From: Gammaproteobacteria bacterium | Lineage (GTDB): Bacteria > Pseudomonadota > Gammaproteobacteria > S012-40 | Assembly (NCBI GenBank): GCA_029881255.1 | Contig: JAOUMY010000003.1 | Coordinates: 26,732-58,731 of the forward strand | Direction of reading: 5' to 3' | DNA length: 32,000 bases | Shown: in pieces, positions 20,612 through 29,469 of the stretch | Position numbering within the stretch: the stretch's first letter is position 1 | How the letters are laid out: each line of letters starts with the position of its first letter | The notes under the pieces: generated by a model | Told to the model about the DNA's origin: nothing | The model's input: only the letters and a program-made list of their open reading frames with translations | The model's database searches: none | Position numbers and translations under genes: made by a program

Positions 20612-21991
20612 TTAAAAATTGCCGTAGGCGCTGGGGACTTCGATACCGTCTTCGCGCATGCGCGCCAGTTTGTAGCGCAAGGTGCGCTGACTGACGCCGA
20701 GTTTTTCTGCCGCAGTTTTGCGGCTACCGTTGGACGCCTTTAAGGCCTCCAATATCAAAACGTGTTCTCTGTCGCGCAGACTGTCACCGAGTTGCCCTTG
20801 CGAATTTTCGTCGTCTGTTTCTATGGGCCTTGGCGCGCTTGCACTGCTGGGCGAGCTAGTATTCATCGACGAAGGTTCAAACATGATTTGTTCATCGTCG
20901 ATGCGTTGATTGACCTGCAAAATCAGCGCACGCTGGGCGACGTTGTCCAGTTCACGCACGTTTCCTGGCCAGCTATGCCCCATCAGTTTTTGCTGTGCAG
21001 CATCGCTGAGTTCTGGCACTGGTCCACCACTGCGCGTATGCCGACGCAGTAAAAATTGCATCAATGGCACCACGTCTTGTTTGCGATCACGCAGCGGCGG
21101 TAAATGAATAGGAAAGACATTGAGGCGGTAATACAAGTCTTCACGAAAACGTCCGTTGGCGACTTCCTTTTTCATGTCGCGGTTGGTGGTGGCGAGTACG
21201 CGCACATCCAGGGGAATAAGTTTATTTCCGCCTAGACGTTCGACTTCGCGCTCCTGTAACACACGCAAGAGTTTGGCTTGCAGGCCGATGTCCATCTCGG
21301 AAATTTCATCGAGTAATAGTGTGCCGCCATTGGCCAGTTCAAACTTACCCGGGCTGGATTTATATGCGCCGGTAAACGCGCCTTTTTCATATCCGAACAA
21401 CATCGCTTCGAGCATGTTTTCCGGAATCGCGGCGCAATTGAGCGCCACAAACGGACCTTTATGCCGCGGCGACATTTGATGAATCTGATGGGCAAAGACT
21501 TCTTTACCGGTACCGCTCTCACCAGAAATCAACACCGTTGCTTCGCTGTCGGCGACCTTGGCGACGAGTGCCAAAACCTCTTTTGTTTTTGGATCTTCGG
21601 CAATCATGTCGCCGTCGACAGTCTCCTGCCCCAACACATGATTGGCAACCATATTCACCAGCACTTCGGCCTCGAAAGGCTTAACCAAATAATCAATCGC
21701 GCCATCGTGCATGGCTTCGACGGCTTTCTGGATAGTGCCGTAGGCAGTCATCAACACCGTCGGAATTTCCGGATGTAGCTCGCGCATTTTTTTCAGCAGT
21801 GTGTGACCATCCATGCCGTCCATTTGCACATCGCTAATCACCATGCCGACGTTATCGTTTTCCAGACACTCCAGCGCCGCGTGACCGTTGTCTGCTTCGA
21901 GCACGTTATAACCTGCGATCTGCAAAGTGTCGGTGAGCGCCTCGCGCAAACTCGCATCGTCTTCTACGATCAGTACGCTGGTGTGGCTCAT
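20612..21991 (-). CDS. flrC: Sigma-54-dependent flagellar response regulator (FlrC/FleR type)
   Basis: Receiver domain (VLIVEDD...ISDVQMDGMDG), AAA+ domain with GESGTGKE and the GAFTGA loop (EKGAFTGA), and a C-terminal Fis-type HTH (AAEKLGVSQRTLRYKL). ATGA overlap with flrB. Confidence 0.92.
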   Translation of the reverse strand: MSHTSVLIVEDDASLREALTDTLQIAGYNVLEADNGHAALECLENDNVGMVISDVQMDGMDGHTLLKKMRELHPEIPTVLMTAYGTIQKAVEAMHDGAIDYLVKPFEAEVLVNMVANHVLGQETVDGDMIAEDPKTKEVLALVAKVADSEATVLISGESGTGKEVFAHQIHQMSPRHKGPFVALNCAAIPENMLEAMLFGYEKGAFTGAYKSSPGKFELANGGTLLLDEISEMDIGLQAKLLRVLQEREVERLGGNKLIPLDVRVLATTNRDMKKEVANGRFREDLYYRLNVFPIHLPPLRDRKQDVVPLMQFLLRRHTRSGGPVPELSDAAQQKLMGHSWPGNVRELDNVAQRALILQVNQRIDDEQIMFEPSSMNTSSPSSASAPRPIETDDENSQGQLGDSLRDREHVLILEALKASNGSRKTAAEKLGVSQRTLRYKLARMREDGIEVPSAYGNF

Positions 21992-23235
21992 GCTTGACTC
22001 CTCTTGGATTCGGGGGCGGGTGTGCTGTTCATAATCGGCAGGCGCATAACAAAAGTCGTTCCTTGTTCATCGCTTTTACCCAACCACAGGCTGCCGCCAT
22101 GGGCCTGGACGACGTTCTGGGCGACGGCCAGGCCCAGGCCTGTGCCTTTGGACTTGGTGGTAAAAAACGGCTCAAAAATTCGCTTCTGATCTTCGGCAGA
22201 AATGCCGGGACCGTTGTCGGCGATATAAATATCTACCGAGGGCAAACTCTGTGTTTGTCTCGGTAAATCAGTGACGATGTGAATCTGTGCCTGTTCGCCA
22301 CAGGCCTGTAGCGCATTGGAAACCAGGTTTTGCATTACGCTCAACAAGGCATCGCGATTGGCGCGCAACAGGATCTCTTGTTGCGGCGGCTGGAGGTGTA
22401 ACATCGCACCGGCCTCACTCACCTGCGCTTCCATATATTGGCCAAGGTCGTTGAGTAGCTGTCCGAGGTCGACTTCCTGTAACACCGTCGCCGCGTCACG
22501 GGTGAAGGACAACATATCGTTGACCACTTTTTCCATGTGACGCATGCGATCCAGCGCCTTGTCGGCAAAACGATTGCGATCGGTTTCTTTAATGCCTTGC
22601 TTGGTCAGATTGGAAACATATAACAGTGCCGAGGCCAGCGGTGTGCGTATCTGATGGGCAACCTTGGCACTCATCTCGCCCATGGCGGATAGACGCTTGT
22701 AACGTTCGAGGGCGGTTTGCAGACCGCGAGCTTCGGTGATGTCGTTGAGTAGAATTATCTGCCCCGGCTCGTTACCTAAAGGACAGGTGGAAATCGACAC
22801 CCAACGACCAGCGAGCGTAATCGCTTCCTGACCGGTAAAGGAGCCACCGGATTGCAGAAAACCTTGTTCGACCACATCGCGCCACAGCGCGCCGTCGAGT
22901 TCCATCGCAAGTAATTCGCGCGCAGCTGGATTGGTCTCTTGAATACGGCCGCGGTTATCGATAACCACAACTCCGGCGGGCAGTGCATCCAGTAGATTGC
23001 TGAGACGGGAGGCGAGCCGCGCGTTTTCCGCCAGTTGTTCGCCATGATCGTGTTGCGCGGAATTCAGCTCTTCACTGAGATTGGAGATGTGATCTTCCAG
23101 GGCACGATAAGTCGCCGTGAGCTGATCGGCTACGCCATTAAAAGCGTTAAAAGCCTCTTGCAGCTCTTTGGGATTTGGCTTGCCTGGTTTGGTCTTGGCC
23201 AAGAAATGTGCTCCGATGATTCCGTCTGTTTGCAT
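21988..23235 (-). CDS. flrB: Flagellar sensor histidine kinase (FlrB/FleS type), soluble PAS-HisKA-HATPase
   Basis: PAS-like region (VVVIDNRGRIQETNPAAREL), H-box MSAKVAHQIRTPLAS, N-box LVSNALQA, G-boxes DNGPGI and GTGLGLAV. The start is uncertain: the ATG at 23235 has no SD and lies only ~4 nt after the predicted sigma-54 start site. An in-frame TTG at 23202 has GGAG 8 nt upstream. Confidence 0.9.
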   Translation of the reverse strand: MQTDGIIGAHFLAKTKPGKPNPKELQEAFNAFNGVADQLTATYRALEDHISNLSEELNSAQHDHGEQLAENARLASRLSNLLDALPAGVVVIDNRGRIQETNPAARELLAMELDGALWRDVVEQGFLQSGGSFTGQEAITLAGRWVSISTCPLGNEPGQIILLNDITEARGLQTALERYKRLSAMGEMSAKVAHQIRTPLASALLYVSNLTKQGIKETDRNRFADKALDRMRHMEKVVNDMLSFTRDAATVLQEVDLGQLLNDLGQYMEAQVSEAGAMLHLQPPQQEILLRANRDALLSVMQNLVSNALQACGEQAQIHIVTDLPRQTQSLPSVDIYIADNGPGISAEDQKRIFEPFFTTKSKGTGLGLAVAQNVVQAHGGSLWLGKSDEQGTTFVMRLPIMNSTPAPESKRSQA

Positions 23236-23361
23236 AACGGAATGCTTTGAGCAAGAAGCATGCCCCTGTTTAGGGCTTTAAATTCAGAGAGTTAAAAAGG
23301 CTAAATCAGACCCCGTCAAGGCTTCGTCACTTTTTTGCCGCGGATTCGGGGAATCCATACA
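23109..23361 (-). repeat. Direct repeat copy A (flrB codons 1-42 plus 126 nt of upstream region)
   Basis: It aligns without indels to 29196-29448 at a constant offset of 6087 bp. By hand count there are 17 mismatches in 253 positions. Boundaries are accurate to about 5 nt. Confidence 0.9.
23250..23265 (-). promoter_or_regulatory. Sigma-54 (-24/-12) promoter of flrB (copy A)
   Basis: The minus strand reads GGGCATgcttcTTGCT (GG-N10-GC spacing exact; consensus TGGCAC-N5-TTGCW). The -12 C is at 23251, 15 nt before the annotated ATG. Confidence 0.7.
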
Positions 23362-23370
23362 GCAGCAGAA

Positions 23371-26300
23371 TCACAAAGGATTTACCGTCAGCGTAAAATT
23401 AGCGCTGTCAGAAAACGAGTTCTTTTCGTCTACGCGGATATATAACGAGCTACCGCTGGAGCTTGCGATACAGGAGTCGTTCCACGTTCCTGCATACGCA
23501 ACATCACAAACCGTACGTGCATAGTTATCGTCGTCGTACACCCAGACATCTACGTCGTCGGTCTGATTCGAAACCTCAATCGAATATAAACCTCCAGCGA
23601 TTAAGCCATCGACGCGATAATATCGGTATTCGTCTTTTACTATCGTGTCATCAAAGGGAGTACTTAGCGATAGCGCTTGTGGAGTTACACTAAATTCGAG
23701 AATTTCCAGGACGAAATCTGAACCCGAATAGCTTATGCTCGCATCGACCACTATATATGCACTTGTACTCTGAGCGACAGCTACACAGTCATCTCCTGTG
23801 CCGAAGTAGTAGGGTTCGCAAAGTACCGAACTATAATCTGCGTCCGAATAGACACTAAGATATGTTCCCGAGTCAGTCATGCTCGCCAAGTTAAAATAGT
23901 AGGCCGTTCCAATTGCAAGACCGGTTACCTCATAATAGACCTTGCCTTTATGGGCGCTGCCAGAAGTATCGGGAAACTCTGACAAATCCATTACAATCGG
24001 ACTTGGGGCCGGTTCTATAGTAATTGAAAATTCACCACCGTTATCGCTGTAGAGCGTGTCAACCAGCAAGAACATCGAACTTCCACTGGCAGTCAAATCG
24101 CACTCGAAATGGGTAAAGCAATAAGTGCCGCTAAACGAACCCTCACTATACAATGAAAGAGAAATCGAAGAAGCCGTCGTATTTGAAATCGTCGCCCTAT
24201 ATGTAACGCCAGAGGATAAACCAGTGATTTCGAACAAACCATAGTTGACACCAATTGAACCGCGCAGCGGAAAATCCTCTGTATCGTATGCAACAACTTG
24301 CGGTGTAACTGCTGTAATCGTTACCGTATCTGTTTGACTACTCAATGTGCCATCGTTGACGATGAGACTAAAAACGTAGTCACCAATGAGGTCTGCTTGA
24401 AATTGGAAATACTTGGCGCCAGGATCGACGATAGTCGCGTTACTACCGGCCGGAGAAGAAATAAGTGTCCAGTTGTAATTCAGCGCGTCATAATTAACAT
24501 CGTAACTCTGATAGCCAAAGACAAAGGGTGAAGAGCCAACTGCTACCGCGTGATCAGCTCCTGCGTATGCGACAGGCGCGACATTTCCGCTACCTGCAGT
24601 AATTATGACAGTATCGACAGCACTATCGGATACTCCATCGTTCACAACTAAATTTATAACATAGCTGCCGTCAACATCAGCTACAAATCCCGACGATACG
24701 CTAGTAGGCGTATCAAGCAAACTAAGACCACTTGTCGCAGGTACTGAATTTATAGACCAGGAGTAACTCAGGTTGTCTCCGTTATTATCCTTGCTAGCGA
24801 CCCCTGAAAGCTCGACATATGAACCGCTTAAAACCGTTTGATCACGACCAGCGTCAGCAACTGGAGGTACATTTTGCGCGGCAGTAATCACTACTTGGCT
24901 TAATAGACTCGTCAGCACCCCGTCGCTTACCGATAACGATATTACATAGCTTCCATCTACATCGGGAGTAAAACTAGGAATCCTCGAAAGTGGTTCATTC
25001 AGCATACTTAGTGTGCTTCCAGTAGGCACAGAAACGATATTCCAGGAATAAGTAGATATAGAACCATCCTTGTCTGTACTTAGTGATCCGTCGAGACCAA
25101 CCAGGGATCCGGTTAAGACAGATCTATCATATCCCGCATGTGCAACAGGCGGCATATTTGCGCCCGCACTAATAGTTACCGTGGCTGGGCTACTACTAAA
25201 ATATCCATCGTTCACCACCAGTGATATCACATAGTATCCTTCAACATCTGCAACGAAAGTTGGATTAACAACAGTAGGATCAGACAATGCCGTAACACTG
25301 CTTCCGACCGGTACAGACACAATCGACCACAGGTAAGTAATTGGAGAACCGTCTGGGTCGATGCTTAAGCTAGCATTGAGATAAGCCGCATTTCCGACGA
25401 TTAACGATCGTCTAGGACCTGCGTGCGCATTCGGCGGACTATTAGGTGCACCGGCCGTAATCGTTACAGTTGAACTGCTACTTTGTAACTGTCCATCGCT
25501 AACGACCAAGGAAAAAACATAGTCTCCATCCACGTCGGCCGTAAAGCTTGGGGAAACGACGCTGTTGCTCGACAGAGTCGAAATACTGCCTGTTGGAAGC
25601 GATACTGTCGTCCAAGTGTACGAGAGAAGTTGTCCATTGGGATCATAACTTGCACTTCCATCCAGCGTCACCACGCTTCCAGTGGTAACATATTTTGAGC
25701 TTCCCGCACTGGAAACCGGCGGCGCATCAACCGCCGCAAGTACTGATACTGTCGCTGGGCTGCTGTTGTCCGTACCATCATTAACAGTGAGTGAGAAAAT
25801 ATATGTGCCTTCAACATCTGGGGTAAAACTCGGACTAACTGTAGCGGCATTGTTCAATGAAATCACGTTACTGGAAGCAGGTACGGAGACCACGTACCAG
25901 CTATACGTTATGAAGTCGTTGTTTGCATCCGAGCTAGCGCTACCGTCCAGTGTAACTAGCCTACCCAGGATTGCAGTTTGGTTTTCTCCTGCGTGGGCAA
26001 TCGGGACAGCCTGGAATGCGACTGATACTAAAACCTCGTCAGCGGCGCTTTCAAGGTTTCCGTCGTTCACCACCAATGTTGCGCGATACACACCAACTAC
26101 ATCGGCAACGAAACTAGGTCTCGCAGCCGTAGCGTCAGATAAACTTGCGGAACTTCCGTCTGGCGCGACCAACGTCCAAAGATAAGTGAGCATGTCACTA
26201 TCAAAATCCGAACTAAGAGACCCGTCGAGCGTAACCTTATCACCGGGTTTTGCTGACGAATCTCTACCCGCGTTTGCAACAGGAGCAGAATTTTTTGTAC

Positions 26301-26658
26301 TTGCTACAATCACCACTTCATCGTCAGCAAACTTATCAAGTTCATCGTGCACGACGAGGGAAACTCGATATACACCATCCAAGTCTGCAATAAATGAGGG
26401 CGCAACAGTGGTCGGATTCGATAAAGTTGCCGCGCTGTTTTCTGGAACGTCAACAAATTTCCAGCTATAGGTAATACGACTTCCCTCTGGATCCACGCTC
26501 AAGCTACCATCAAGCTTAACAAGCGATCCGGTAGCAATATTTTGATCCGTACCGGCATGGACGACAGGAGCCTGATTATCAAGTGGGAATTCATTTAAGC
26601 AAGAGGAAAGTAGAAGAATAGGCGAGATAGTGATCAGCTTTGGAAAATAAAAACGCAT
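23371..26658 (-). CDS. Large surface lipoprotein: 8 tandem PKD-like Ig domains followed by 3 PPC-like (pre-peptidase C-terminal type) domains
   Basis: Signal peptide with lipobox-like ILLLSSC (Cys20). Eight ~95-aa repeats follow the pattern (N)xAPVAxAGxDxxVxxGSxVxLDGSxSxDxxGxxLxYxWxxVSxPxGSxxxLSxxTxxxPxFxADVxGxYVxxLVVxDG. Three ~100-aa C-terminal domains follow, each with a conserved Cys pair (TYCFTHFEC, VLCEPYYFGTGDDC, TVCDVAYAGTWNDSC). RBS AGAGGAAAG. Confidence 0.85.
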   Translation of the reverse strand: MRFYFPKLITISPILLLSSCLNEFPLDNQAPVVHAGTDQNIATGSLVKLDGSLSVDPEGSRITYSWKFVDVPENSAATLSNPTTVAPSFIADLDGVYRVSLVVHDELDKFADDEVVIVASTKNSAPVANAGRDSSAKPGDKVTLDGSLSSDFDSDMLTYLWTLVAPDGSSASLSDATAARPSFVADVVGVYRATLVVNDGNLESAADEVLVSVAFQAVPIAHAGENQTAILGRLVTLDGSASSDANNDFITYSWYVVSVPASSNVISLNNAATVSPSFTPDVEGTYIFSLTVNDGTDNSSPATVSVLAAVDAPPVSSAGSSKYVTTGSVVTLDGSASYDPNGQLLSYTWTTVSLPTGSISTLSSNSVVSPSFTADVDGDYVFSLVVSDGQLQSSSSTVTITAGAPNSPPNAHAGPRRSLIVGNAAYLNASLSIDPDGSPITYLWSIVSVPVGSSVTALSDPTVVNPTFVADVEGYYVISLVVNDGYFSSSPATVTISAGANMPPVAHAGYDRSVLTGSLVGLDGSLSTDKDGSISTYSWNIVSVPTGSTLSMLNEPLSRIPSFTPDVDGSYVISLSVSDGVLTSLLSQVVITAAQNVPPVADAGRDQTVLSGSYVELSGVASKDNNGDNLSYSWSINSVPATSGLSLLDTPTSVSSGFVADVDGSYVINLVVNDGVSDSAVDTVIITAGSGNVAPVAYAGADHAVAVGSSPFVFGYQSYDVNYDALNYNWTLISSPAGSNATIVDPGAKYFQFQADLIGDYVFSLIVNDGTLSSQTDTVTITAVTPQVVAYDTEDFPLRGSIGVNYGLFEITGLSSGVTYRATISNTTASSISLSLYSEGSFSGTYCFTHFECDLTASGSSMFLLVDTLYSDNGGEFSITIEPAPSPIVMDLSEFPDTSGSAHKGKVYYEVTGLAIGTAYYFNLASMTDSGTYLSVYSDADYSSVLCEPYYFGTGDDCVAVAQSTSAYIVVDASISYSGSDFVLEILEFSVTPQALSLSTPFDDTIVKDEYRYYRVDGLIAGGLYSIEVSNQTDDVDVWVYDDDNYARTVCDVAYAGTWNDSCIASSSGSSLYIRVDEKNSFSDSANFTLTVNPL
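24298..26574 (-). repeat. Tandem array of 8 diverged ~285-nt coding repeats (PKD-like domains)
   Basis: The repeats start at about aa 29, 123, 215, 310, 404, 500, 595 and 690 of the 1095-aa protein. They are diverged at the DNA level and are protein-domain repeats, not CRISPR or satellite. Confidence 0.8.
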
Positions 26659-27042
26659 CTAAACTTTCCTCTTTGGTATTTGATACATCTATCGGACTAG
26701 CCAAACGCGCATCTATAACAATTTTTGCCAACAAAACCATAATTTTCCGATAAACCGACAGAACAACTCCAACTCTTTCATCAAGTTTCAAGCAATCCTC
26801 TCCCTATAACTGGCATATGGCACAAAAAAACACGCATTACTTTCTGCACTATTGGATTTATTCCCAAACAATTTCTCGATCTAAATATTTGTAAACGTTC
26901 TATACGAATACTACAAGACTAGTTAACACAGACAACATACCAATTACATCGTCGTCATCGAACAACGCCGATCCTAAACTGCCACGCACCTACTTAAAGA
27001 TAGAAACACGTCCGACGATATACATAGCAATATGCGCCACTC

Positions 27043-28440
27043 ATGAGAACCGCCAATTTGAAAAATATAATCTATAAATTAGCTCTAACAACGAATTTAC
27101 TTTTCCTATTTTCGTGCGTAACAACACCTGTGGAACACACATTAGTACCGGAAGGACACGAAAAGTCTGGACTACTTGTTGGCGAGATAATTTCAACCAG
27201 TATTCCAAATTTTAAATACGCAAGTGTCGTTATCGACGGTGTAGAACGAGGAAATTCTCGATTCGGCGGAAAAATAAAATTTTTACATTCACCTGGAAAT
27301 CATACGATAAATTCTGTAAACGTTCCTATACCCGGAACCAACTTATATAATCGCTACCCCATTAATCTAGCATTCACTATTAACTCCAAAAGAGTCACCA
27401 ATTTCGGATTGCTAAATATTGAAATACAAAGCAAAACTAATCAGTTTTTTATTTGGTATTTGGACAACAATGAAGAAATGAAATATTTTCTTAACAACGC
27501 CTACCCAAATGAATCGACAAAGATTAACTTGACCGAAATATCTCTGATTCCGAACAAGTACGTTAAAGGAAATAAGATAAATAATATTCGTAATCATATC
27601 ACCCGCAATACGCTAATTTCTCGTATGGATGACAAAACTAGACCGCTAAACGTCAAAGGATATGTACTAGGCCCTATCGGAAGCATTGCGAGATATGATT
27701 TATCCAACAAGAACTCTCCTTTGGAAACCCCTATTGACATAGATACGACGCTTGATATGAGCAATTGCAAGTCGCATGAAAAAATTGTCGCATGTCTATT
27801 CCCCCCGAGTAAACTATTCGTCGTAGATGGAAAAAAGGCATACAAACGCAGTTTGCCTGACGGCATAGTAGCCGACACTATCCGGATTCTAGACAAACAA
27901 AAATTAATGCTCATCGATAAAGCTGGGTCTATATTTGTTTCCCGAAACGCCGGTGTTTCCTGGACTACGGCACATAAAAGTACGGTAAGTCGCCAGCCTC
28001 AGTTCGCGGCGAACGAGTATCTTAACAACTATGGCTCTGAATCCTATGGTGTATATCTCGGTCCCGACAAATATTACGTTTACGCAAATTCGCGTGAAAA
28101 AAGCGGAAATTTCGGCATTTGGGAAAGTGACAGCAAATTGAAATCTTTTTCGGCTATTTCGCTACCGGAATCTATACGTGATATACCAAGTATTTTGGAG
28201 TCTAACGACACCCTTGTAATCAGCCCACGTATTGAGAATCTCTTTAACGAGGAATTCTACATACGCACTAGCGACGGAAAAACTTGGCGAACTGTCGATA
28301 CGCCTGGAAGACGGTGTGGCGCCCTGAAAGTTAGCGAAAGTGACCCGAATACCATGAGCCTGATTTGTTCCGGTAGAACATGGAAAACAACAGACGGCGC
28401 CAAAACCTGGAAGGCAAGCAACAAGTTGGATAAAGGCTAA
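27043..28440 (+). CDS. Lipoprotein with a very AT-rich N-terminal half and a BNR/Asp-box (beta-propeller-like) C-terminal half
   Basis: Lipobox LLFLFSC|VTTP. Asp-box-like motifs SRNAGVSWTT, TSDGKTWRTV and TTDGAKTWKA. The N-terminal ~200 aa are N/K/I-rich. No convincing SD before the ATG. Confidence 0.7.
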   Translation: MRTANLKNIIYKLALTTNLLFLFSCVTTPVEHTLVPEGHEKSGLLVGEIISTSIPNFKYASVVIDGVERGNSRFGGKIKFLHSPGNHTINSVNVPIPGTNLYNRYPINLAFTINSKRVTNFGLLNIEIQSKTNQFFIWYLDNNEEMKYFLNNAYPNESTKINLTEISLIPNKYVKGNKINNIRNHITRNTLISRMDDKTRPLNVKGYVLGPIGSIARYDLSNKNSPLETPIDIDTTLDMSNCKSHEKIVACLFPPSKLFVVDGKKAYKRSLPDGIVADTIRILDKQKLMLIDKAGSIFVSRNAGVSWTTAHKSTVSRQPQFAANEYLNNYGSESYGVYLGPDKYYVYANSREKSGNFGIWESDSKLKSFSAISLPESIRDIPSILESNDTLVISPRIENLFNEEFYIRTSDGKTWRTVDTPGRRCGALKVSESDPNTMSLICSGRTWKTTDGAKTWKASNKLDKG

Positions 28441-28480
28441 GCCTTGTAAGCAAACGTCAAATCATCATGAGAAGAAGTCG

Positions 28481-29107
28481 ATGACAAAAACATACAAACT
28501 GCTACTACTAAGTGTTTTTTTATTCCCATTTAACCAGACACAAGCAAGCAGCCTTGATCTCAGCGGTTACCTCAGCCTAGCACTTGGCCTTGGCGGAGAC
28601 AGATTGTTGGAAATCGGTTATACCGATGGGACGAAAGGAACAACTTACGCCGGAAATGGAGCTTCCGTTATAGTCGGCTCAACTCTTCGAAATAACTATT
28701 TTGAAACTAGAGCGGGAATCGGCTTTATGTCTGTTAGACAAACTGGCGACAATGGCGGCGCAGGGTTCAGGCGGTGGGTGGCAGAAGGAACCGGACTCAT
28801 TCGACTGGGCCGGGAAAAAAAGCATATGATTGGCGGTGGTGTGGTTTATCACATAAAACCCGTTCTAGAATGCGAATTCACTGGCCTGTGCCAAGACTAC
28901 ACGTATTTCAAAAATGCGCTCGGATACACTGTCGAATACAACTATGTATTCGACGGTGGCAATCCAAATTACATGGATACCTATGCAATCGCCTTGCTGT
29001 TTTTTACGCGTGTACAAATCGTCAAGTACCAGATTAATGATTCCACGAGCAACTATACCGCTGATGGCAGCGGTATAAGTATGGGCGTGGCAGTTACGTG
29101 GTATTGA
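28481..29107 (+). CDS. Small outer-membrane beta-barrel protein candidate
   Basis: Signal peptide MTKTYKLLLLSVFLFPFNQTQA|SS. Alternating hydrophobic/glycine-rich strands. C-terminus ends GVAVTWY (aromatic terminal residue). It starts 40 nt after the preceding gene, so it is probably co-transcribed. Confidence 0.55.
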   Translation: MTKTYKLLLLSVFLFPFNQTQASSLDLSGYLSLALGLGGDRLLEIGYTDGTKGTTYAGNGASVIVGSTLRNNYFETRAGIGFMSVRQTGDNGGAGFRRWVAEGTGLIRLGREKKHMIGGGVVYHIKPVLECEFTGLCQDYTYFKNALGYTVEYNYVFDGGNPNYMDTYAIALLFFTRVQIVKYQINDSTSNYTADGSGISMGVAVTWY

Positions 29108-29121
29108 TGAGAGAGTATACG

Positions 29122-29322
29122 TCACCTAAACGTCTTTAGTCCTAAGGCCAATATGATCTTTAGGTCACAAAGACTCATCATACTCGTGTCGCGACAAGTC
29201 GCCGTAAGCTGATCGGCTACGCCATTAAAAGCGTTAAAAGCCTCTTGCAGCTCTTTGGGATTTGGCTTGCCTGGTTTGGTCTTGGCCAAGAAATGTGCTC
29301 CGCTGGTTCCGTCTGTTTGCAT
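29122..29322 (-). pseudogene. Orphan 5' fragment of flrB (42 homologous codons plus 24 unrelated codons, then stop)
   Basis: MQTDGTSGAHFLAKTKPGKPNPKELQEAFNAFNGVADQLTAT matches FlrB residues 1-42 with 2 substitutions (II to TS). Homology ends at about 29196 and the frame runs on to a stop at 29122. Confidence 0.85.
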
Positions 29323-29448
29323 AACGGAATGCTTTGAGCAAGAAGCATGCCCCAGAATTGGGCATTGAAATCAGCGACTTAAAAAGCCTAAATCAGACCC
29401 CGTCAAGGGTTCGACACTTTTTTGCCGCCGATTCGGGGATTCCATACA
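29196..29448 (-). repeat. Direct repeat copy B (flrB' fragment plus upstream region)
   Basis: See copy A. Copy B ends exactly at the stem-loop that overlaps the leuA stop codon. Confidence 0.9.
29337..29352 (-). promoter_or_regulatory. Sigma-54 promoter copy B (orphan duplicate of the flrB promoter)
   Basis: Its GGGCATgcttcTTGCT is identical to copy A. The 30 nt upstream of the ATG are 100% identical in the two copies. Confidence 0.6.
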
Positions 29449-29469
29449 CCGGCTGACAAACTCAGCCGG
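29449..29469 (-). terminator. Stem-loop overlapping the leuA stop codon (weak terminator candidate)
   Basis: CCGGCTGA-CAAAC-TCAGCCGG, a perfect 8-bp stem. On the minus strand it is followed by TGTATGG, which is a poor T-tract. Confidence 0.35.

Follow-up and report, generated by a model that had tools for sequence, protein, structure and literature searches.

[quoted passage not shown]

Introduction

Insertion with long target duplication has been described by Nobusato et al. (2000, Gene 259:99) and by Furuta, Abe and Kobayashi (2010, PMC2853133). The duplications reach up to 423 bp and the elements lack mobility genes, and a cycle of amplification and release via the repeats has been proposed (PMC2853133). 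The described repeat pairs measure up to 417/423 and 384/412 bp, and their cargo consists of restriction-modification systems (PMC2853133). The architecture of the locus analysed here matches insertion with long target duplication. A foreign block of <20 kb that encodes neither an integrase nor a transposase is flanked by repeats of >30 bp, longer than the duplications made by transposons. The repeat is ordinary local DNA, otherwise unique and slightly diverged, and could support amplification or loss. In contrast to the described cases, the cargo comprises three envelope/surface genes in place of a restriction-modification system, and the target holds a complete enhancer-dependent promoter with a gene start, so that a potentially active orphan promoter results. 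Unlike there, the empty site was not found in a sister genome.

Campbell-type (single-crossover) integration and homology-facilitated illegitimate recombination likewise leave the homologous segment directly repeated on either side of the insert, the copies being hybrids. These models predict that part of a copy is derived from a diverged donor while the remainder matches exactly, which fits the 14% divergence of the distal part of the repeat, the ~1.4% divergence of its centre and a junction of the type found in contig L034 (see below). However, no donor molecule or replicon is known for this island, and the models give no reason for the distal homology edge to lie just where the leuA terminator hairpin ends. 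The locus also resembles e14 and phage 21 in E. coli icd and the islands in tRNA and tmRNA genes, where the target gene stays intact because a near-identical end is supplied and the displaced pseudo-end lies at the other border. Those elements depend on a site-specific integrase, and it is usually the 3' end that they replace, whereas here a recombinase gene is absent and the 5' end is duplicated together with its promoter.

The duplicated promoter is of the FleQ/FlrA class II sigma-54 type, known from Vibrio flrBC and Pseudomonas fleSR, with a -24/-12 core upstream of the flrB/fleS kinase gene. In Vibrio, flrBC is known to be activated by FlrA together with RpoN (PMC3930126). As in such promoters, a GTCA...TGAC box resembles the proposed FleQ consensus in the form quoted in PMC6120874, and an IHF-like site lies between box and core. 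The locus differs in that flrA is remote from flrB, whereas in relatives the master activator gene is located directly upstream, and in that it has two promoter copies, with the canonical box in the copy that drives no gene.

A preliminary description of the locus had proposed that this second copy is maintained and may link flagellar gene activation to antisense interference with the surface-protein genes of the island. Here we compare the two copies with each other and with their relatives. Copy B is most likely an insertion scar, and a role as a regulatory switch is speculative.

Results

A foreign-looking island lies between two copies of the flrB control region

The window, by which we mean the whole 32,000-nt stretch of DNA analysed, corresponds to C33:26732-58731 of a 4.97-Mb genome. 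Along the minus strand, the order is leuA, repeat copy B, a unique spacer, the barrel and BNR genes (both on the plus strand), a divergent spacer, the PKD gene, repeat copy A, flrB, flrC, fliE, fliF and more flagellar genes. The features of the island and its borders are:

31180/31225 to 29462, minus strand: leuA
29188-29456, minus strand: repeat copy B, orphan, with a flrA 3' remnant, the upstream control region, the sigma-54 core and the first ~43 flrB codons; homologous to the flrA-flrB intergenic regions of contigs L031 and L032
29108-29191, no strand assigned: junction spacer, 84 nt, with nested inverted repeats, no U-run and a single occurrence in the genome
28481-29107, plus strand: barrel gene, orphan barrel candidate, 208 aa; the first gene in the antisense path of a predicted transcript from copy B
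27043-28440, plus strand: BNR/sortilin-like protein gene, 465 aa
26658-23371, minus strand: PKD-repeat protein gene, 1095 aa
23370-29191, no strand assigned: island cargo, 5822 nt, three genes, bracketed by the 261-265-nt repeats
23101-23369, minus strand: repeat copy A, leading into the intact flrB-flrC-fliE... operon (Pfam: histidine kinase, sigma-54 activator and FliE/FliF)

A repeat search followed by base-by-base registration aligned 23105-23369 with 29192-29456 at 92% identity, without gaps and with an offset of 6087. The outer limits of the repeats are 23101-23369 and 29188-29456, which corresponds to a length of 261-265 nt; firm homology extends over 23101-23361 (261 nt) with 20 differences. 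The repeat has only these two copies in the 4.97-Mb genome. The duplicated unit reaches from just past the leuA terminator hairpin to approximately codon 43 of flrB.

The GC content of the island is 0.34-0.47 versus 0.52-0.55 in the flanks, and a 384-nt divergent spacer separates the BNR gene from the PKD-repeat gene. Neither the ORF list nor a domain search revealed an integrase, a transposase or a tyrosine/serine recombinase in 23370-29191. A search of 5.8 billion proteins returned no homologue of the barrel protein. The BNR protein was not found in the 15 same-family relatives searched and has one distant match, 25% identical, among 40 other genomes searched. No plasmid match was found for the island. 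The low GC content, the orphan barrel, the failure to find the BNR protein in the relatives searched and the lack of a plasmid match thus mark the cargo as lineage-specific and foreign-looking. The island sequence is 100% identical across three data sets and appears to be of recent arrival. We also considered the junction spacer as a repeat element, a MITE or an attC site; it is unique in the genome, matches integron core sites weakly by eye and gives no Rfam hits, and these assignments were rejected.

Copy B carries the elements of an authentic flrB sigma-54 promoter

The control elements of the two copies are:

29337-29351, minus strand: sigma-54 -24/-12 core GGCATGCTTCTTGCT of copy B, with a predicted transcription start at ~29326
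23250-23264, minus strand: sigma-54 core of copy A, the operon promoter, identical to the copy B core
29402-29415, minus strand: FleQ-type palindromic box GTCGAACCCTTGAC (GTC-N8-GAC), in copy B only, 64 nt upstream of the GG
29369-29381, plus strand: perfect IHF consensus WATCARNNNNTTR (AATCAGCGACTTA) of copy B, between box and core
29347-29365, minus strand: hairpin overlapping the -24 element, with a 6-bp stem in copy B and 5 pairs in copy A (23262-23276)

The position of the transcription start follows from the customary spacing to the -12 element. In copy B, GGCATGCTTCTTGCT has the GG and GC dinucleotides 10 nt apart within a TGGCAC-N5-TTGCW-like sequence, as expected of a sigma-54 core. 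The pattern GGCAY-N5-TTGCW matches the window three times (0.34 expected), in copy A, in copy B and at the fliK promoter. In relatives, a sigma-54 core is located between flrA and flrB in 19 of 20 cases by the strict pattern and in all 20 when the pattern is slightly relaxed. The hairpin that overlaps the -24 element is terminator-like toward transcripts arriving from the upstream gene.

Upstream of the core, the family-typical arrangement is retained in copy B. A GTC-N8-GAC box with the consensus GTCAAGAGTTTGAC is found at -63 to -66 in 11 of 20 relatives, where it overlaps the flrA stop codon. In the genome studied here such boxes are rare, with a density of 0.16 per kb. The equivalent in copy A (23315-23328) reads GAC...GAC, one half-site having been lost. 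The box shared by copy B and the family has the outer half-sites of GTCaNTAAAtTGAC, the FleQ consensus proposed for Pseudomonas aeruginosa as quoted in PMC6120874, and by analogy with that quoted sequence FlrA may bind to it. The IHF-like element occurs at -30 of the GG in five relatives (L010, L011, L015, L031 and L032), with near-variants in most of the others; copy A has a TGAAT variant. The genome encodes RpoN (C17:938778-939254) and, as the cognate activator, FlrA, whose gene lies at C33:101585-103063 and whose product has a FleQ domain.

The core, the IHF-like site and the FleQ-type box of copy B are all located at family-typical positions, and copy B keeps the box and a perfect IHF site while copy A lost a half-site; the earlier designation of copy B as an orphan but intact promoter is therefore supported. 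By every sequence criterion applied, copy B is a complete, orphan copy of the authentic flrB sigma-54 promoter.

The four other flagellar sigma-54 promoters inspected (flgB, fliD, fliK and a fliL-like one) have no GTC-N8-GAC box. An attempt to build a FlrA motif from the other promoters of this genome was abandoned, as these same four are class-III-like, boxless and too few.

The flrB promoter has moved away from flrA

The gene flrA is located directly upstream of flrB in all 20 relatives and near-relatives. In this genome the distance between them is 52 kb, and the interval contains hrpB, a one-strand run of small genes, an NRPS cluster, lrp and leuA. In the two closest contigs, L031 and L032, FlrA is 91% and 84% identical, and FlrB 71% and 64% identical, to the proteins of this genome. 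Each of these contigs lacks the island and carries one promoter only, but there it is located between flrA and flrB. Apart from a 5-nt indel, the distal ~42 nt of copies A and B can be aligned with the final flrA codons of L031 and L032, so the flrB promoter moved along with a decayed flrA tail that contains the activator box. Overlapping functions were kept both in the promoter relocation and in the later duplication, and selection for motility may thus have determined which rearrangements persisted.

A genome of the same species or genus that lacks the island was found neither by protein look-ups nor in the GTDB set nor by a metagenome scan. Exact look-ups of FlrB (415 and 404 aa) and of the 587-aa LeuA returned no match, and those of the 572-aa LeuA, FlrC, the BNR protein and the barrel protein led only to contigs identical to the window, three of which (L033, L037 and L038) end within the repeats while a fourth (L039) is too short. 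The GTDB set holds no further species of the genus, with a top FlrB match of 57% identity, and a single metagenome pattern scan for the empty site returned only two unrelated chance matches. Without an island-free sister genome, we therefore infer the empty site and the direction of the event.

The two copies form a mosaic of near-identical and diverged parts

The differences between the copies are distributed unevenly. Our alignment reproduced the counts of the preliminary description: the copies are identical over ~31 nt just upstream of the flrB ATG, including GGCATGCTTCTTGCT (23236-23266); the 127 nt taken as coding (23109-23235) differ at three sites (23219, 23216 and 23119); and the distal 96 nt (23266-23361) differ at 14 sites. 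Over the firm homology, 14 of 97 distal and 6 of 164 proximal positions differ (Fisher p=0.003). The maximum chi-square method places the breakpoint at 23267/23266, on the upstream border of the -24 element (permutation p=0.03), and the longest perfectly matching run measures 96 nt (permutation p=0.001). The differences are concentrated at both homology edges, with 14 in the distal part, four in the final 20 nt and two across the intervening 147 nt. The near-identical block thus comprises 147-161 nt and extends well past the promoter, covering synonymous sites of a stub that ends in junk.

In a comparison with L031, the outgroup state is retained at nine distal sites in copy A and at one in copy B; with L032, the numbers are seven and three. 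The upstream, distal part of copy B is therefore the faster-changing and more derived one.

The preliminary description had taken the low divergence of the core and 5' end as a sign that copy B is maintained rather than decaying. This interpretation did not hold: the identity block passes through synonymous sites of the stub, its breakpoint is sharp and the distal part of copy B is the more derived one. The mosaic pattern, whose shape is that expected of a conversion tract or of a crossover within a donor-recipient hybrid, is better explained by recombination between the copies, either a crossover or gene conversion, than by selection. Given that the GC content of the cargo is far from that of the host and that the island is 100% identical in three data sets, it is implausible that point mutation after the insertion produced the 14% distal divergence; a diverged donor segment would be a simpler source.

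The spectrum of the differences is peculiar. A<->T or G<->C swaps account for 12 of the 14 distal differences versus none of the six proximal ones (p=0.0007). Such a swap-biased spectrum is not that of neutral decay, and neither model accounts for it; it could be a sign of constraint on both copies. Some of the distal swaps create or destroy small palindromes: copy A has a perfect GGATTCCCCGAATCC (23342-23356), copy B has the GTC half-site of the box, and the hairpin over the -24 element gains one base pair of stem in copy B. As the source of the swaps, error-prone gap filling during the insertion was considered and discarded, as it predicts distal changes in copy A and the outgroups place most of them on copy B.

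Copy B could yield a short stub and antisense RNA to the barrel gene

The reading frame downstream of the copy B core is:

29122-29322, minus strand: stub ORF, 66 codons from the ATG; likelier 55 codons from a TTG at 29289, with a GGAG at 29298-29301

The preliminary description counted 66 codons, and from the ATG the stub indeed comprises 42 FlrB residues followed by 24 others, which are encoded by the junction spacer and have no homologue. The ATG is less convincing as a start, and the likelier TTG leaves 55 codons. The flrB ATG lies ~4 nt from the predicted transcription start and lacks a ribosome-binding site. In contrast, the database gene call for FlrB (P0001, 404 aa) starts at a TTG at 23202, with a GGAG 8 nt upstream, and this arrangement is kept in the closest relative contig, L031. 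Judged from these signals, flrB probably starts at the TTG, and the stub would have 55 codons. With a TTG start, two of the three "coding" differences between the copies belong to the 5' leader. An 86-aa antisense ORF at 28865-29125, whose GTG overlaps the TGA of the stub, was dismissed, as its sequence looks random.

A terminator scan detected no terminator-like site in 29108-29195 on either strand, in line with the earlier observation. Folding of the junction region gave only a nested hairpin without a U-run, no better than shuffled sequence. The transcript path suggested in the preliminary description thus holds as a prediction: RNA from copy B would pass through the stub and then run antisense into the barrel gene, with no intrinsic terminator between. 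All of the copy A control region to ~+135 is present in copy B, and copy B is therefore expected to fire whenever copy A does, which we consider likely. The transcript would comprise the stub ORF preceded by a ribosome-binding site, a stop at 29122 and then an untranslated part antisense to the barrel gene. The antisense RNA of the barrel gene has C-rich, G-poor windows at 29131-29054 and 28858-28700. Such windows in untranslated RNA make Rho termination inside the barrel gene likely; the antisense RNA is probably ended by Rho before the BNR gene, and it is doubtful that it reaches that gene. Transcription from copy B and that of the BNR-barrel genes could also meet head-on, in both directions.

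A metagenome contig joins the island ends through a hybrid repeat

Contig L034 (ENA ERZ27296366, 2791 nt), from an independent metagenome assembly, joins the barrel end of the island to its PKD end via one hybrid repeat. It is otherwise identical to the window over its 2791 nt, with no other mismatches. Two proximal marker sites of this repeat are of the B type and the remaining ones of the A type, which puts the crossover inside the 96-nt identical run. Provided that the contig is genuine, this is the recombinant repeat predicted from an exchange between the copies. If real, L034, a single short and probably low-coverage MEGAHIT contig, may represent the junction of an excised circle or of a tandem duplication; it may also be an assembly chimera across the 96-nt identical stretch.

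Discussion

On balance, we favour a model in which copy B is a scar, the displaced flrB control region left behind by insertion and duplication, and in which its identity to copy A goes back to recombination and not to selection for antisense transcription; our confidence in it is moderate. In this model, a 5.8-kb foreign island of envelope-protein genes would have inserted near codon 43 of flrB, accompanied by a duplication of 261 nt. This segment would hold ~42 nt from the very end of a decayed flrA, the promoter with its FlrA, IHF and sigma-54 elements, and the beginning of flrB. Its duplication would restore an intact flrBC-fliE... operon at copy A, and the event would have been tolerated because the operon was rebuilt there. 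Formally, the insertion is equivalent to single-crossover integration of DNA that bears a homologous segment. The near-identity of the core and the 5' part would stem from recombination between the copies, in the original crossover or in later gene conversion. As far as the sequence allows a prediction, copy B probably fires when FlrA and sigma-54 are active. Its product would be a short transcript encoding a chimeric stub of 55-66 aa and running antisense into the 3' part of the barrel gene, where Rho would most likely end it. We infer that copy B has no selected role.

Copy B might also be silent in vivo, a pure scar that is occluded by convergent BNR-barrel transcription or lacks FlrA contacts. 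BNR-barrel transcription would run head-on into copy B with no terminator between. The sites of FleQ-family activators are varied and poorly defined and are located upstream or downstream of promoters (10.1101/2021.08.29.457346; PMC6120874); an intact-looking box is therefore no guarantee of activation. However, any downstream FleQ sites would be expected in the leader and the 5' coding part, which copy B also has, and the activation of copy A should extend to it. We regard complete silence as unlikely.

The circuit suggested in the preliminary description, in which copy B has been selected as a FlrA/sigma-54-driven antisense or interference promoter that lowers BNR-barrel expression and thereby toggles between motility and surface proteins, is quite improbable. 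It draws on the complete set of cis elements in copy B, with a FleQ-type box better than that of copy A, on the path into the barrel gene without an intrinsic terminator, on the convergent geometry of copy B and the BNR-barrel genes, and on the fact that 12 of the 14 distal differences keep the weak/strong base class, a possible sign of constraint on both copies. The identity nevertheless extends far beyond the promoter, through synonymous sites of a junk-ended stub, and breaks off in a mosaic manner, and the distal part has changed more in copy B than in copy A. The untranslated antisense RNA, with its early C-rich, G-poor stretches, would be a likely Rho substrate, and an island that looks recent and is 100% identical in three data sets left little time to select a new circuit.

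A broader version, to which we assign a slim chance, holds that copy B is the operative FlrA-responsive element of the locus. It would act either as a selected, sigma-54-driven antisense or collision promoter that silences the BNR-barrel genes during flagellar assembly or, from a distance, as an enhancer or decoy by which flrBC expression from copy A, with its defective box, is set, and the swap pattern would reflect a shape-readout constraint on both copies. A reading with both copies constrained retains this small share mainly because the swap bias is unexplained.

It is very unlikely that copy B matters chiefly as DNA, be it as a recombination partner for excision, amplification or loss of the island, as in L034, or as a remote enhancer or decoy for FlrA via its box. 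The hybrid junction of L034, the documented amplification of such elements via flanking long repeats (PMC2853133) and the presence in copy B of the sole GTC-N8-GAC box among the flagellar sigma-54 promoters examined in this genome are consistent with such a role. L034 is, however, possibly an assembly chimera, excision by homologous recombination is a passive trait of any direct repeat, and enhancer action over 6 kb is speculative. Finally, translation of the stub into a functional small protein that mimics the FlrB N-terminus and modulates FlrB/FlrC signalling is extremely improbable: the GGAG-TTG start signals are kept in copy B and residues 12-42 are a conserved N-terminal segment of FlrB (56-69% identical in relatives), but the preservation of the start signals is accounted for by the same identity block, the 24 C-terminal residues come from the junction spacer and are without homologue, the fragment stops short of the PAS domain (which starts at about residue 77), and there is no independent small-protein family.

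The insertion scar that we favour has implications beyond this locus. It illustrates how an essential regulatory operon can take up foreign genes at its start and stay intact, through duplication of the promoter together with the gene start. Such a duplication leaves a fully equipped enhancer-dependent promoter whose sole possible output is antisense RNA, and orphan promoters such as copy B are raw material for new regulation. If copy B fires and affects the island genes, the very act of insertion would have connected a horizontally acquired module to the flagellar hierarchy. The locus also adds envelope genes to the cargo of insertion with long target duplication, which in the described cases consists of restriction-modification systems.

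As a separate observation, the FleQ-type box of copy B is better than that of the working copy A, which is unexpected in a mere relic.

Separation of flrA from flrB

flrA directly adjoins flrB in each of the 20 relatives examined (20/20); in this genome, 52 kb lie between the two genes.

G000:C33:101585-103063 (contig coordinates), flrA
window 21988-23235, flrB

A decayed flrA 3′ end of ~42 nt is carried by both repeat copies, the operon-side copy A leading into flrB and the orphan copy B, and flrA itself is complete at its C-terminus, with a strong hairpin terminator behind it. A decayed 3′ end in both repeats together with a complete one at flrA indicates that a duplicated overlap was also part of the earlier flrA-flrB separation.

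The metagenome contig L034 (ENA ERZ27296366 k141_309214) comprises window 27383-29191, a hybrid repeat and 23370-24086, linking the right end of the island, the low-GC cargo between the copies, to its left end via this one repeat. The hybrid is B-type at the equivalents of 29195 and 29206 and A-type at the other sites. Such a junction would be expected for an excised island circle or an island tandem duplication, or the contig may be a chimera from low-coverage assembly, formed over the stretch of 96 identical nt.

Hairpins and base swaps in the repeat

One hairpin overlaps the -24 element of the sigma-54 promoter, and another lies at the leuA end of the repeat.

23262-23276 (copy A) and 29347-29365 (copy B), minus strand, hairpin overlapping the -24 element
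29449-29469, 8-bp hairpin at the leuA end, arms CCGGCTGA/TCAGCCGG

The -24 element itself forms the 3′ arm of the first hairpin and is followed by the T-rich -12 region, an arrangement that looks like a terminator for the upstream gene (flrA in relatives; the PKD-repeat gene or leuA here). The stem is common to both copies, the loop differs at four positions, and comparable hairpins are found in some relatives (L031, L006, L015). The leuA-end hairpin contains the leuA stop codon in its 5′ arm and lacks a U-run; solid repeat homology starts directly after it.

The two copies differ at 14 sites in their distal parts (23267-23353 vs 29354-29440), and 12 of these are A↔T or G↔C swaps that keep the weak/strong base class, as compared with 0/6 in the proximal part (p=0.0007). 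Some distal swaps make or break small palindromes; copy A has GGATTCCCCGAATCC as a perfect palindrome (23342-23356), and copy B has the GTC half-site of the activator box.

Start of flrB and an antisense ORF

23200-23235 (copy A) and 29287-29322 (copy B), flrB start region
28865-29125, minus strand, 86-codon ORF antisense to the barrel gene

Translation of flrB most likely starts at TTG 23202 and not at ATG 23235. GGAG lies 8 nt upstream of the TTG, the database gene call for FlrB (404 aa) agrees with this start, and the arrangement is conserved in a relative (L031); transcription from the sigma-54 promoter is predicted to begin ~4 nt from the ATG.

The GTG start codon of the 86-codon ORF overlaps the TGA of the truncated flrB stub (GTGA); its sequence looks random, and it is an unsupported candidate.

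A gene run outside the window

G000:C33:58700-98600, small-gene run and NRPS-type cluster (L042/L043)

No Rfam matches were found in this region, which resembles a cassette array. Small unrelated genes (GNAT, methyltransferase, SRPBCC-like, DUF5946, GmrSD, DUF4145, MORN) all lie on one strand, with attC-like sequences (TAACAAG...GTTAAGC) between them. A 153-156-nt repeat occurs three times (60751, 89724, 97842; 91-94% identical), and the region also holds the ~24-kb NRPS-type cluster and fragments of IS elements and group II introns.
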